Below are positions 1-4,384 of a stretch of DNA of 4,384 nt, one piece after another (positions within the stretch are counted from its first letter, which is position 1; each line of letters starts with the position of its first letter). Location of the stretch: positions 1 through 4,384 of the forward strand of contig JBHIDR010000046.1 in assembly GCA_046760225.1 (NCBI GenBank), written 5' to 3'. Under the pieces are notes generated by a model. That model had not been told where the DNA came from. It made no database searches and saw only the letters and a program-made list of their open reading frames with translations. Source of the stretch: Candidatus Aenigmatarchaeota archaeon. Lineage in GTDB: Archaea > Aenigmatarchaeota > Aenigmatarchaeia > Aenigmatarchaeales > JACQIB01. The position numbers and the translations under genes were made by a program.

Positions 1-1
1 A

Positions 2-217
2 GTGAGGAAAGCCGTTATAACGTCTCCCCAGAGGAGAATCGACCTTGCATTAAGGCTGATAACACAGGGGAGCTACCAGAAGTCCCATGGAAAGGGAAAG
101 AAGATGGAAGAGGCACTGGCAAACGAACTCATTGCATGCTATGATTATGATTCTTCAAAATCCACTGCAATAAGGGAAAAGGAAAGAATAGAAAGAGAGG
201 CTGCGGGAGCAAGGTAA
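2..217 (+). CDS. rpsG: 30S ribosomal protein uS7, C-terminal part (5' truncated by the window edge)
   Basis: Translation ..KAVITSPQRRIDLALRLITQG..EEALANELI..AIREKERIEREAAGAR* matches the archaeal uS7 C-terminus (SPxRRxDLALR; K/ExERxAxxAR). It lies upstream of EF-2, as in str operons. Stop TAA 215-217. Confidence 0.93.
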   Translation: MRKAVITSPQRRIDLALRLITQGSYQKSHGKGKKMEEALANELIACYDYDSSKSTAIREKERIEREAAGAR

Positions 218-220
218 TAG

Positions 221-236
221 CAAAAAGATTTAAATA
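221..236 (+). promoter_or_regulatory. Putative archaeal promoter: purine-rich BRE (CAAAAAGA, 221-228) plus TATA box (TTTAAATA, 229-236)
   Basis: Consensus-like TTTAWATA box directly preceded by an A-rich BRE. It would place the start site near 258-263, just upstream of the SD of ORF 280. Confidence 0.65.
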
Positions 237-267
237 TACTTCTACTGTATAATTGGAACATATCAAT

Positions 268-273
268 AGGTGA
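268..273 (+). promoter_or_regulatory. Shine-Dalgarno site AGGTGA for ORF 280..516
   Basis: Archaeal-type GGTGA SD, 6 nt before ATG 280. Confidence 0.75.
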
Positions 274-279
274 AAACAA

Positions 280-516
280 ATGGCAGAAAAAGTAGAATTC
301 CAGACAATCAAAGCAGAAGAAACAAAGTTCGGAACCAACAACTTTATAGAGGTTGCAAGAAAGAAGGCAATATCCGAGAGAGGTGAGAACGAGTTTATCT
401 CTGTTTCCAGGGGGTTCTTTGCACCCGATGGAACAAAGCGTTTCACCAAGAGCATTGCAATTCCTGTGGAAGTTGTTGATTTCGTTGCAGAGAAACTGAA
501 GGTTGTCAAGGAGTAA
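280..516 (+). CDS. Small hypothetical protein (78 aa); possibly a PC4/Whirly-like nucleic-acid-binding fold
   Basis: ATG with SD and upstream TATA box, co-oriented with the operon, protein-like composition. Alternating beta-strand patterns (NFIEVARK, EFISVSRGFF, RFTKSIAIP) are followed by an amphipathic C-terminal helix (VEVVDFVAEKLK). The fold call is inference only. Confidence 0.8.
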   Translation: MAEKVEFQTIKAEETKFGTNNFIEVARKKAISERGENEFISVSRGFFAPDGTKRFTKSIAIPVEVVDFVAEKLKVVKE

Positions 517-521
517 TTTCA

Positions 522-562
522 AGCCAATAAGAACCCAAGAATGGGTGTTTCCTTACTTGGTT
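522..562 (+). other. Intergenic imperfect stem-loop upstream of EF-2
   Basis: AGCCAA 522-527 pairs with TTGGTT 557-562 (one G-U). TAAG 528-531 pairs with CTTA 552-555. ACCCA 533-537 pairs with TGGGT 542-546. Loop AGAA. Confidence 0.45.
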
Positions 563-586
563 AGGTATGTGGAAAACTAAAAACAA

Positions 587-592
587 AGGAGG
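587..592 (+). promoter_or_regulatory. Shine-Dalgarno site AGGAGG for EF-2 (ATG 600)
   Basis: Strong SD 7 nt upstream of ATG 600-602, which opens an EF-2-like N-terminus. Confidence 0.8.
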
Positions 593-599
593 ATGAAAA

Positions 600-3500
600 A
601 TGGTAGCAAAGGAAGAATATTCCGAGAAAGTGCAGGCTCTAATGAGCAACCCCAAGAACATCCGCAACATAGGCATTGTTTCGCATAACTTCTTCAGTTG
701 TGGTTGAGAAGTGCGAAAATACATCATGGAAAATGCATATCCAAGGATGCCCGCATTATGATAGATGACGGGAGACTTATAGCTGCTAAGGATATTTTCA
801 AACAACTTTCTCCGCTAGGTAGACCCATCAAGAATAGTGATAATGAGGTTGTTTATGACGTGAGTAAGTGCGGCCTGAGGGTGCTCTCGCTTAATAAAAA
901 CAATATGAAACTAGAAAGCAAAGAGATACGTCTCATTTGGAAGCTTAAGACCTCCGAAGAGCTTTTCAATGTGGAGCTTGACAGCGGATTATCTGTAGCA
1001 ACGACACCTGAGCACTTATTTTTGACGTTCGATGGTAAGGACATCAAAGAAGTTCCCGCAGAACATCTTAGGGAAGGACAATTCATCATATGTGCAAGGA
1101 CTGTGAACTATAATCCTGCTTCCATTGAGGAAATGAAGAGGGAGATTATGTTAAAACTCTCCGGACGACAGGAATTTATAGTCAAGTTGAATGATATCTT
1201 CGCATCTGAGATAAAGAGCAGAATAATGGATATCGGGATAGAAGAAGTATGGAAGAGTATAGCCACACATTATAAGAAAAAGGACTTTTATTCATCATGC
1301 ATCTATCATGGGAGATACAGATTAAGGGACATCGTGGCTTTGTGCAAGTACTTCGAAGTAGGCCTTGACAGGCTCTATGACTCCATTGAGAATATTGCTT
1401 ATAGAAAAAGCTTGAAGAAACACGGTAAGCTATCAACAAGGATGAAACTTCCGAAAAGTGAAAAGGGCTTTTCTGAGCTGCTTTATGCGATAGGACTCAT
1501 ATTCGGGGATGGCTGCAGGACATTTATAACAAATAATAATGAACATTTGCAGAAAAGATTCTTGTATATAATGAAAATGTTAGGCTTTAGGCCAACAGTT
1601 GAAAAGAGAGCCAACAGGGCAACCAATGTTCTAAGCAACGGTGGAATGACATTCTTAAACTTCATGATAGAAGTGTTTGATTATCCCATAAAAGATAAGA
1701 CGAAGAGCATAAGAATATCAGAGTTCATAGAAATGCTGGATAAAAGATTCATAGCAAGTTTTCTGCGCGGCTATTTTGACGCGGACGGTACAATTGAAAG
1801 AGGAAGGAGCGCCATTTCGATTACTTCCATGAGCAATAGAATGCTGAAAGACCTGCAACTGTTATTATTGAGATTCGGTTGCCAGTCAACCTTGAACAAG
1901 GACACCCTATACATATCAGGTCAGTCTGCAAGGATGTTTGCGTATAGGATAGGTTTTTCAACTGATGGCAAGATTTCGAGAATGAACAAGCTCGTGGGAA
2001 AGGCAAAATCCTCGAAGAATACGGATGTCGTGCCAGTTGATGCATCGTTGCTCTCATTTGCTGGATCTAGATTCAGGGGATATAAGGTAGGAGATTTAAC
2101 GGCCACGTCCTTTTCGTTGCAAAGTATGACTGAGGGCATAGAGTATGTTCCTTCAACTATAAAAAAAATAATGGACGGTGACGTGAGTTTTGTTAAGGTC
2201 AAGTCCATAGAGAGAACAAGGGAAAATGAAGTATTTGATTTTACAATCCCAGATAATCATAACTTTATTGCTGAAGGAATGATTATACATAATACTTGCC
2301 TCACGGACAACCTGGCCGCCGCGGCAGGGATGATGGCAAGGGACCTTGTTGGAGAAAGGATGCTCACATGGATCGACGAACAGGAAAGAGAGCGGCTCAT
2401 GACAATCTACGGTGCAACAGTAACAATGGCGCACGAATATGAGGGTGAGAAGTACCTCATCAACCTTCTGGATACTCCTGGCCATGTTGATTTTGGCGCA
2501 GACGTTACGCAGGCTATGCGTGCTGTTGATGGAGGAGTGGTTCTGGTCTGCGCTGTTGAGGGAATAATGCCACAGACAGAGACAGTGCTAAAGCAGGCAC
2601 TGGCTGAAAGGGTAAAGCCTGTTCTTTTTATCAACAAGGTGGACAGGGCAATAAAGGAACTGAAGCTCACGCCCGAGGCGCTCCAGAAAAGGCTAGCTAG
2701 GATAGTAGTCAATGTCAACAAATTTATCCAGCGTCATGTTGAAGAACAGTACAGGGACAAGTGGGTGGTAAAAGTAGAGGACGGCTCTGTTGCATTCGGC
2801 TCTGCACTGAGGAAGTGGGCAATATCAATTCCTGCTATGAAGAAGTTCAATGTAACTTTCAAGGACATCATAGAACTATGCGCTGCTGGCAAGGATGAAG
2901 AGCTGGCAAACAGGGCACCAATGAACATTGTTGTCATGGACATGGTTGTGAAGCACCTTCCTGCTCCAACAGAAGCGCAAAGGTACAGGATAGAGAAGGT
3001 ATGGAAAGGTGATCCAGAGAGTGAAGTGGGCAAGCAGCTAATGAGCTGCGATCCCGATGGGAAGCTGGCTGCTGCGATAACAAAGGTTGTTTATGACCCC
3101 CATGCAGGCATGATTTCAACTGCAAGGATATTCTCAGGAAAACTGAGAAAAGGGGAGACAGTATACCTGCATGACCTGGGAAGGCAGGCCAAGATACAGC
3201 AGGTAACAACCTTCATAGCAGACAAGAGAATACCTGTTGAGGTCACTCCTGCTGGAAACATTGTGGGACTGGTGGGGCTGACAGAAGCAATTGTAGGAGA
3301 GACAATGTGCGACCCTGAGTTCATTATCGAGCCCTTTGAAGCAATAACACATATATTCGAGCCTGTTGTCACAAAGGCAATCGAGCCCAAGAGCCCGCAG
3401 GACCTGCCAAAGCTCATAGACATCCTCAAGACACTCAACAGGGAGGACCCCACACTCAGGATAAAAATAAACCCTGAGACAGGAGAGACACTTGTCTCAG

Positions 3501-4378
3501 GCCTGGGAGAGCTCCATCTTGATGCCAAGGTAGAGAGGAAGATAAAGGAAAAGGGAATTGAGATCCATGCATCCCCGCCCATAGTTGTTTACAGGGAAAC
3601 AGTCACGGGCGAGAGCCCTGAGATAGAGGGAAAGAGCCCGAACAAGCACAACAGGTTCTATATCTCTGTTGAGCCCATGCCAGCTGAAATCTACAGGGCA
3701 ATGATGGAGGGTGTGATAAAGGACGCTGATATAAAGGGAAAGAAGGTTGAGATACTAAAAGAGCTTGAAAAGGTTGGCATGAGCAGGGACGATGCAAAGA
3801 ACACAAAGATTATTCATAATCACTGCATTTTCATTGATGACACAAAGGGAATACAGTACCTGAACGAGGCAATGGAACTGATAAAGGACGCTTTCAAGAG
3901 GGCGGTGGACGAGGGACCGCAGGCAAAGGAGCCCTGTGCAGCAATCATAGTGAGGCTGACTGATGCTTCCCTGCACGAGGATGCTGTGCACAGGGGGCCT
4001 GCGCAGGTGATGCCTGCTGTAAGGATTGCAATACATGAGGCAATGCTGAAAGGAGGCACAGGCATGCTGGAACCAAAGCAGATATTGAGAATAGACACGC
4101 CGCAGGACTACATAGGAAATGTCTCAGGCGAGGTGAACAACAGGAGAGGGGAGATAATGAACATAGAGCAGGAGGAATTCTCTTCTGTTCTTACTGTGAA
4201 GCTGCCTGTTGCAGAAATGTTCGGGTTTGAGGGACAGCTGAAGAGCGCAACAGGAGGAAAAGGTTTCCAGTCGCTAATGGATGTTGTGTTCGAGAAGGTG
4301 CCAAAGGACCTTGTGCCGCAGGTAGTTGGCAGGATAAGGGACAGGAAGGGCCTTCCAAGGGAACTTACAAGGGTGTGA
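600..4378 (+). CDS. fusA: Archaeal elongation factor EF-2, join(600..686,719..4378); 1248-aa precursor containing a 520-aa intein; mature protein 728 aa
   Basis: Exon 1 encodes MVAKEEYSEKVQALMSNPKNIRNIGIVSH (EF-2 IRNIGI motif). G1 continues IHHGK/TCLTDNL. Also present: G3 LINLLDTPGHVDFG, G4 FINKVD, G5 AFGSA, domain III EDPTL..SGLGELHL, PIVVYRETV, KSPNKHNRF, diphthamide loop LHEDAVHRGPAQ, and C-terminal RRGEI..PVAEMFGF..LKSATGG..IRDRKGL. Stop TGA 4376-4378. Confidence 0.96.
687..718 (+). other. Putative 32-nt BHB (tRNA-endonuclease-type) intron in the EF-2 mRNA
   Basis: Removing 687-718 joins TCG CAT to ATA CAT CAT GGA AAA (S-H-I-H-H-G-K), restoring frame and P-loop. Predicted fold: central 4-bp helix UCGC 681-684/GCGA 713-716, 3-nt bulges AUA 685-687 and AAA 717-719, intron stem ACUUCU 688-693/AGAAGU 707-712. 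Cutting after the 2nd nt of each bulge gives 686^687 and 718^719. Confidence 0.85.
734..2293 (+). mobile_element. Intein (520 aa) with LAGLIDADG homing endonuclease, inserted in EF-2 G1 between Lys and Thr
   Basis: Block A CISKDARIMIDDG (Cys1 at 734), block B TTPEHLF (from 1001), block C LLYAIGLIFGDG (1478-1513), block E FLRGYFDADG (1760-1789), block F VFDFTIPDNHNFIAEG, block G IIHN ending at 2293, +1 Thr at 2294. Excision yields HHGK-TCLTDNL. Confidence 0.96.
3971..4006 (+). other. EF-2 domain IV diphthamide loop (LHEDAVHRGPAQ); target His codon 3989-3991
   Basis: The HRG motif characteristic of archaeal/eukaryotic EF-2 is intact; this distinguishes it from bacterial EF-G. Confidence 0.85.
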
Positions 4379-4384
4379 GACAGT

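Follow-up and report, generated by a model that had tools for sequence, protein, structure and literature searches.

A predicted tRNA-type intron and a class-1 intein, probably with separate histories, in the P-loop codons of an Aenigmatarchaeota elongation factor 2 gene

Introduction

Why would two splicing elements of different kinds lie within the codons of a single GTP-binding loop, and does either of them owe its place to the other? This question is raised by the window (the whole stretch of DNA analysed here, 4,384 nt), which is the entire contig C46 of genome G000, an 851-kb, 83%-complete metagenome-assembled genome (MAG). The window carries the gene for archaeal elongation factor 2 (aEF-2, hereafter EF-2) of a member of the Aenigmatarchaeota (DPANN), and the codons of its P-loop are interrupted twice, by a 32-nt insert without an open reading frame (ORF) and by an intein. 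An earlier note on this DNA had proposed that the insert is an intron that either hitchhikes with the intein by co-conversion or disrupts the target of the intein's homing endonuclease. We consider it likely that this single-copy gene harbors two unrelated elements with separate histories, namely a bulge-helix-bulge (BHB) intron and a class-1 intein.

Results

Two interruptions in one P-loop

The EF-2 start codon is ATG 600, downstream of a AAGGAGGA box, and no second EF-2 copy was present in G000. The parts of the gene outside the two inserts are as follows.

586 to 593, plus strand: Shine-Dalgarno-like AAGGAGGA, ahead of the EF-2 start (read directly)
600 to 686, plus strand: EF-2 exon 1, 29 codons, M...NIRNIGIVSH (tblastn, residues 1-29, 90% identity to the same-genus allele)
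719 to 733, plus strand: micro-exon IHHGK, 15 nt, end of the N-extein (frame reading)
2294 to 4378, plus strand: EF-2 C-extein (Thr+1, 694 residues) and stop codon (Pfam domains; 83% identity to G001)

The frame of ATG 600 reads MVAKEEYSEKVQALMSNPKNIRNIGIVSH and then meets TGA at 705-707, ending after 35 codons. A long frame from 698 to 4378 holds IHHGK (719-733), Cys1 (734-736), the His-Asn pair (2288-2293) and Thr+1 (2294-2296); the downstream EF-2 frame is open for 1226 codons, and its C-extein matched the Pfam families GTP_EFTU and EF-G domains 2, III, IV and C. In uninterrupted relatives, including the same-genus genome G001, the region reads NIRNIGIVSHIHHGKT(C/T)LTDNL in one piece. Excision of 687-718 restores exactly this P-loop reading, and the spliced window is identical to G001 over residues 10-85. 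The alternative register 688-719 gives the same product but misfits the BHB motif. The distance of 15 nt (719-733, IHHGK) that the earlier note gave between the 3' end of the intron and Cys1 of the intein was exact, and, as it claimed, the intein with its endonuclease can be translated from ATG 600 only once the intron is removed, since the unspliced frame stops at 705-707. Likewise, three separate pieces of the gene encode the P-loop SHIHHGKT; their assembly by RNA splicing and then protein splicing is suggested by the BHB motif, the EndA and RtcB genes and the class-1 intein described below.

DNA contigs from four public runs of one study cover positions 35-4380 and 1-3423 with a handful of single-nucleotide polymorphisms (SNPs). 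They carry the same intron and intein structure in two SNP haplotypes, and no indel or joint was found in them at 686/719 or 733/2294, so the structure did not arise through misassembly of this MAG. None of these contigs, which drop rare variants, showed the window allele without its intron or without its intein. No RNA run was found to contain the stretch. Note that contigs often end in or beside the EF-2 5' region (G005, G007, G024, G033, G171, G249, G325 and the window), which would fit strain-level presence or absence of inserts breaking assemblies.

The 32-nt insert and its homologues

BHB introns are cut after the second base of the bulge. The motif is defined by a 4-bp helix that separates two bulges of 3 nt each where intron and exon meet (PMC5829648), and the insert shows this arrangement (script result true at 687, length 32), with the following components.

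687 to 718, plus strand: predicted ORF-less BHB intron, 32 nt (alignment, motif check, homologues in G005, G027, G021 and G024)
681 to 684, plus strand: central BHB helix, exon strand UCGC, partner 713-716 (by hand, script check, folds)
685 to 687, plus strand: 5' bulge AUA, putative cut 686/687 (the protein alignment demands this position)
688 to 712, plus strand: intron hairpin h', ACUUC/GAAGU and CA/UG, loop 697-704 (centroid and minimum free energy (MFE) folds; compensatory changes in relatives)
713 to 716, plus strand: central BHB helix, intron strand GCGA (by hand, script check, folds)
717 to 719, plus strand: 3' bulge AAA, putative cut 718/719, relaxed (by hand, fold)

UCGC thus stops two bases short of the end of exon 1, and GCGA two bases short of the end of the intron, while the hairpin ACUUC/GAAGU, followed by CA/UG, stacks on the central helix. 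Cuts after the second bulge base would yield NIGIVSH/IHHGK, the sequence of the uninterrupted relatives. Canonical BHB geometry at length 32 occurred at 173 of 1,694,212 position/strand pairs genome-wide, that is, with a chance of ~1e-4 per register, so that its presence exactly at the junction required by the protein is not a matter of chance. The centroid fold of the window contained the intron hairpin, the helix with UCGC/GCGA and the 5' bulge, and a closed 3' bulge together with a weak outer helix (see Discussion) points to a relaxed, HBh'-like form of the motif. An Rfam scan of the window (E <= 1) returned only a chance match, to a plant-virus leader, in the intein region on the minus strand.

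Relatives of the intron were found in the order-level sample, which comprised 39 genomes displaying the EF-2 5' region. Introns at the same site and with the same central helix were present in G005 and G027 (31 nt each), and copies slid by 1 nt, with the helix CGCA/UGCG, are 32 nt long in G021 and 33 nt long in G024; all four genomes are intein-free. The intron hairpins of this family (ACUUC/GAAGU, GUUUCUAA/UUAGGAAC and AUCUUUAA/UUAAAGAU) have pairs altered on both strands, and two-sided changes at 3 of 14 consensus pairs in the small sample of five sequences indicate that the structure was kept by compensatory change. The MFE structure of the relatives was the BHB motif itself (z = -3.4, -4.3 and -4.3). 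Furthermore, the introns of G021 and G024 differ in length by 1 nt, matching a one-step difference in exon frame, and this correspondence only makes sense with the insert removed from the RNA.

The script used for intron detection enumerates canonical BHB motifs and keeps those whose excision improves the protein alignment. It called alignment-restoring canonical BHB introns in 13 genomes, and 3 more genomes fit by hand; no call was made among ~30 uninterrupted EF-2 alleles. The greedy splicing step mispicked where the helix has a mismatch, and readable cases were redone by hand and the rest left uncounted. Script picks rejected for this reason were G020 (47 nt), G065 (46 nt), G112 (40 nt), G106 (82 nt), G137 (40 nt), G118 (37 and 63 nt) and G176 (29 nt). 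In addition, 21-nt inserts near residue 575 in three alleles were genuine 7-residue protein insertions, not introns, and a stop reported in G012 lay outside the alignment.

The intein

The second interruption has the features listed here.

734 to 2293, plus strand: intein, 520 residues, Cys1 to His-Asn (frame, Pfam, GC)
1001 to 1021, plus strand: TTPEHLF, T-x-x-H, which we take to be intein block B (read from the sequence)
1478 to 1516, plus strand: first LAGLIDADG motif (…GLIFGDGC; read from the sequence)
1760 to 1792, plus strand: second LAGLIDADG motif (…GYFDADGT; within the Pfam LAGLIDADG_3 match)

The element matched Intein_splicing (1.3e-29) and LAGLIDADG_3 (5.6e-17) in Pfam, and its GC content was 0.396, as against 0.496 in the C-extein. 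Cys 734, TTPEH (1001-1015), HN (2288-2293) and Thr 2294 follow one another in frame, the exteins join to the consensus GKT, and both LAGLIDADG motifs keep their acidic residues (Asp). By its motifs, this is an intact class-1 LAGLIDADG intein with predicted endonuclease activity.

When the window intein was used to search 371 genomes of the phylum, an intein was found at the same GK/ point in 24 EF-2 alleles. The nearest, with 52% identity, is that of G008, whose allele is intron-less. Related inteins also follow the P-loop Lys of other GTPases in the same phylum (loci L081, L083, L087 and L088), at GHVDxGK/C (aIF5B-like) and GFNGxGK/C (SRP54/FtsY-like) sites.

Distribution of P-loop introns and inteins

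We tabulated the presence of introns against that of inteins over the genomes of the phylum, using the 21 of 24 intein-bearing EF-2 alleles in which the N-extein is visible. A P-loop intron was present in two of these (the window and G100) and absent from 19, compared with 25 of ~183 intein-free genomes examined, and Fisher's test (p = 1.0) indicated that the intron and the intein are independently distributed; the value was p = 0.67 if every unexamined genome were taken as intron-free. Co-inheritance of the intron and the nuclease as a pair was thus not found. The intron of G100, a 31-nt canonical BHB intron, lies one base further 5' and is unrelated in sequence to that of the window. In total, at least 27 species-level genomes of the phylum have an EF-2 P-loop intron, 25 intein-free and 2 with the intein.

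The fully sampled order, with 37 intein-free genomes, accounts for 5 of the 25 intein-free carriers, and 40 further genomes, which were chosen because their match was weak, account for the other 20. Their motifs were canonical by script in 13 cases and canonical by hand in 3, had one helix mismatch in 6 and a non-canonical 3' side in 2, with 1 case unresolved. The ~183 genomes are the 25 carriers, ~143 uninterrupted rows counted by eye, and 15 uninterrupted alleles among the 40.

These results bear on the earlier proposals. A hitchhiking origin of the intron is not supported, as members of the same family are present in the intein-free G005, G027, G021 and G024, and a link between the two elements, whether by hitchhiking or by interference, is at odds with the independence seen in the tabulation. 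The idea of co-conversion survives in part: intron DNA does travel with its exon flanks, as the G005 haplotypes described next suggest, and it is the tie to the intein that finds no support.

Exchange of the intron with its flanks

G005 holds two contigs with an EF-2 start, one intron-plus and one intron-less (loci L009 on G005:C2 and L034 on G005:C8). The two haplotypes are identical over 88 nt upstream and 57-60 nt downstream of a divergent tract of ~215 nt around the intron; within the gene, 109 of 135 positions are identical over codons 1-45 (26 differences), followed by 57 of 57. The coding differences are nearly all synonymous, and an 18-nt indel lies upstream. At the serine codon in the central helix, the intron allele has UCG and the intron-less one AGC. 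All five alleles of the window's intron family read TCGCAT at the central-helix site, and G017 is the only intron-less allele of the order with TCG at that serine.

A similar pattern was seen in G021, whose identity to the intron-less congener G016 is 0.77 over nt 1-135 and 0.92 over nt 136-330. Over nt 1-135 it is closer (0.82) to the intron allele of G005, a member of another family. The tract in G005 and the pattern in G021 indicate that intron and flank were exchanged, or erased, as a unit by recombination. No match to the window intein was found in the G005 genome at E <= 1e-10. Judging from these alleles, the intron appears to move, or to be lost, with its flanks by recombination and with no need of an intein, although we can only infer the direction of the events.

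A hotspot for introns in the EF-2 G domain

The G domain of EF-2 is a hotspot for introns: the 16 nt that precede the intein site contain at least nine cut positions (-16, -15, -14, -13, -9, -4, -2, -1 and 0 nt relative to the intein insertion point). None was seen just downstream of that point among the alleles examined. Inserts at 0 to -4 nt were found in six intein-free genomes, G184, G203, G027 (second intron), G327, G038 and G105, and introns this close to the insertion point would break the homing site. Further recurrent sites lie near codons 64, 101 (DTPGHVD/F) and 106, and some alleles have three introns; within the order, none was found past codon 102. The hotspot may reflect a need for conserved flanks in recombinational spread, or the requirement that removal be exact, and inserts 0-9 nt from the junction may also owe their position to spoiling the intein homing site.

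In several alleles the first 130 EF-2 codons are in three or four pieces (L097 in G077, L098 in G112, L109 in G118, L108/L110 in G125 and L138 in G319), and introns as short as 15-20 nt were called in G077. L115 (G184) and L163 (G203) carry a 30-nt hairpin insert with stops exactly at the Lys/Thr intein point; its 3' side misfits the canonical cut rule.

Splicing enzymes and introns in rtcB

Both the splicing endonuclease and the RtcB ligase expected for a BHB intron are encoded in G000. The EndA domain (PF01974) occurs in two genes side by side on contig C2 (L092, 1297-1785 and 2332-2859), separated by ~550 nt that include a nitroreductase-like ORF, and their best solved relatives are 1a79 and 3iey. 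One paralogue aligns best with the Nanoarchaeum equitans-type chain 3iey and keeps the His, and the other is without an aligned catalytic His, so that the enzyme is likely of the hetero-oligomeric type. An endonuclease of this type is said to be linked to the splicing of cbf5 pre-mRNA, going by the title of a report by Yoshinari from 2006.

RtcB (PF01139) is encoded on contig C35, where its gene is interrupted at ~1530-1680 (L093/L094) by two BHB introns with canonical motifs, partly established by hand. Intron 1 is 30 nt long, stop-free and in frame, within HEGY/GFPIGG; intron 2 is 32 nt long, within GIG/y/DINCG, with the helix UAGG/CCUA and a 7-bp hairpin. Since rtcB carries such introns, making the ligase would need the ligase. 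The whole of G000 was also scanned for canonical BHB motifs with a restored ORF. Of the candidates, 1214 before and 65 after filtering, nearly all were noise from gene borders or antisense frames, and the 32-nt rtcB intron alone was clearly real; the scan missed EF-2 because exon 1 is shorter than the 50-codon filter. Separately, aragorn predicted only 21 tRNA genes in G000, 13 with introns, some of them oddly placed and up to 693 nt long.

Neighbouring genes

Ahead of EF-2, the window holds the end of the gene for ribosomal protein S7 and then a 78-codon ORF (280-516). This ORF gave no Pfam match and is conserved at the same-genus locus L003.

Discussion

We propose the following sequence of events for the window allele. 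The 32-nt intron would pair with the last bases of exon 1 as a BHB motif, the tRNA-splicing endonuclease would cut at 686/687 and 718/719, and RtcB would join the exons. Unspliced, the message would be translated from ATG 600 for 35 codons only; the spliced mRNA would give a 1248-residue precursor, from which the intein (Cys1...His-Asn / Thr+1) would excise itself to leave an EF-2 of 728 residues whose P-loop has the normal sequence SHIHHGKT. The intron family appears to occur widely among the intein-free EF-2 alleles of this order and to spread, or be lost, with 100-200 nt of exon flank via homologous recombination, and the intein would be a member of a P-loop intein family residing mostly in intron-less alleles. 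The closeness of the two would then reflect a shared liking for an extremely conserved stretch, with no mutual dependence.

Two explanations that would couple the elements deserve consideration. In a hitchhiking or collaborative homing scenario, the intein endonuclease cuts empty alleles and repair co-converts the ORF-less intron 15 nt away. That distance is well within the ~215-nt conversion tract around the G005 intron, the acidic residues are retained in both LAGLIDADG motifs, G100 provides a second allele with both elements, and the ORF-less group I intron paired with F-CphI offers a precedent (PMC6083498). We nevertheless regard it as improbable, given that a P-loop intron is missing from 19 of 21 intein alleles and present in 25 intein-free genomes (p = 1.0), that the window's own intron family resides in the intein-free G005, G027, G021 and G024, that the conversion tract was found in G005, a genome with no intein match at E <= 1e-10, and that the G100 intron differs in register and sequence. 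Homing interference, in which the intron arose or was kept by breaking the endonuclease target and so shielding intein-free alleles, would account for the clustering of P-loop introns from -16 to 0 nt and for all six inserts at 0 to -4 nt being intein-free, in a phylum where P-loop inteins are common (24 alleles). For the window it nonetheless seems quite unlikely: here, and in G100 with its intron at -16, intron and intein occur together in one allele, and introns are not depleted among intein alleles. LAGLIDADG endonucleases recognise sites of roughly 20 bp, and -15 is probably outside such a site. Moreover, introns recur near codons 64, 101 and 106 with no intein seen there, indicating that conserved motifs in general attract them. 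A broader, speculative version would treat the BHB mini-introns of DPANN as mobile DNA that spreads by gene conversion with 100-200 nt of flank and piles up on the P-loop intein homing site, where inserts 0-9 nt from Lys/Thr make the allele uncuttable in a contest of intron against intein; the window's intron at -15 would lie just outside the protected zone, and hence coexist with the intein. We rate this scenario as rather unlikely.

It might also be asked whether the insert is an intron at all. Ribosomes can hop over a stretch of message, as in phage T4 gene 60, and a stable hairpin after the break and frames that overlap over 689-704 could suggest that the ribosome passes the insert by programmed frameshifting or hopping. 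A -1 shift, however, would add ~10 residues to the P-loop, and a hop between CAU 684 and CAU 722, the one pair of codons that match as take-off and landing sites, would delete two loop residues. In-frame inserts with stop codons in G024, G038, G027 (second intron), G319 and G189, which all fit the BHB motif, rule out frameshifting, and an explanation of this kind is altogether very improbable. A broken gene, or an insert produced by assembly or sequencing error, could be suspected because the window is a short whole contig of an incomplete MAG, but the gene is the sole EF-2 copy and its downstream frame is open over 1226 codons. With the same structure in contigs of four runs and two SNP haplotypes, and the intron conserved in other species, such an artefact is hardly credible.

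Several observations weigh against the reading that we prefer, a BHB intron and a class-1 intein with separate histories. In all folds of the window, the helix with UCGC/GCGA has 5-7 bp; U680 pairs with A717 in one fold and 679-680 with 717-718 in the MFE fold, the 3' bulge being closed because the upstream U residues pair with the As after GCGA. The outer helix has only 3 bp (UGU/ACA) after a U.U mismatch, the motif fold has z = -1.96 with 7 of 200 shuffles equally good, and no excess stability is seen when a longer context of 86 nt is folded (z = -0.06). At the position aligned with what we take to be the catalytic Lys of the M. jannaschii enzyme, Ala is present in both EndA paralogues. The Fisher test behind p = 1.0 ignores relatedness and is not tree-aware, ~140 genomes of the phylum stand outside the intron count, its denominator was partly counted by eye, and only 2 intein-bearing alleles occur within the fully sampled order. 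The window allele shows no divergent tract against G001 (0.78 and 0.78), and thus gives no direct sign of how either element reached it. Finally, it is from sequence alone that we infer the insert to be an archaeal tRNA-type BHB intron that is removed from RNA.

If splicing proceeds as proposed, an essential translation factor would need tRNA-splicing enzymes and then protein splicing for one GTP-binding loop, and the ligase gene required for this carries BHB introns itself. The paired haplotypes with their sharp tract make gain, loss and movement of ORF-less archaeal introns testable, and the overlap of intron and intein sites offers an assay of whether introns act as immunity against homing endonucleases.

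In a literature search made mostly on listings and abstracts, cbf5 was the only case found of tRNA-type introns in pre-mRNA or protein-coding genes of archaea, and no EF-2 intein, no Aenigmatarchaeota intein and none of the present introns was found described. What is new here is the phylum-wide hotspot, the test of independence between intron and intein, and the haplotype tract. LAGLIDADG inteins in P-loops (GK/T or S) are known from archaeal translational GTPases, namely the aIF5B ('IF2') inteins. The window intein resembles them in its position after the Lys of GxxxxGK, in Cys1, His-Asn and Thr+1, and in the LAGLIDADG domain between the splicing halves; it differs in its host, EF-2.

The BHB intron of cbf5 pre-mRNA is known from Crenarchaeota (Watanabe 2002; Yoshinari 2006; Yokobori 2009, PMC2738675), and cbf5 introns are given as the pre-mRNA BHB cases in PMC5829648 and PMC12397907. 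Like them, the introns described here are short, ORF-less and situated in protein-coding sequence, with a BHB motif at their boundaries, a two-gene endonuclease of the hetero-oligomeric type and a patchy presence among relatives. Unlike them, they reside in EF-2 and in a DPANN lineage, the Aenigmatarchaeota; they use many cut positions in one loop and several sites per gene, with up to three introns per allele, and their DNA shows a conversion tract; their splicing is predicted.

Collaborative homing has been described for the free-standing endonuclease F-CphI and an ORF-less psbA group I intron of cyanophage S-PM2 (Zeng, Bonocora and Shub 2009, via PMC6083498). The window is similar in that an ORF-less intron and a homing endonuclease gene are neighbours within highly conserved coding sequence, and in the idea that the intron protects from cutting and is carried along; here, however, the intron is of the BHB type, the nuclease lies inside an intein, the distributions are uncoupled and cleavage is only predicted. 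On a broader scale, inteins and nuclease-bearing group I introns prefer conserved sites, and group II and spliceosomal introns do not (Swithers et al. 2009, PMC2814812). BHB introns lie outside that analysis and carry no nuclease, yet the EF-2 mini-introns likewise lie in or beside the GTPase motifs, the P-loop and DTPGHVD/F.

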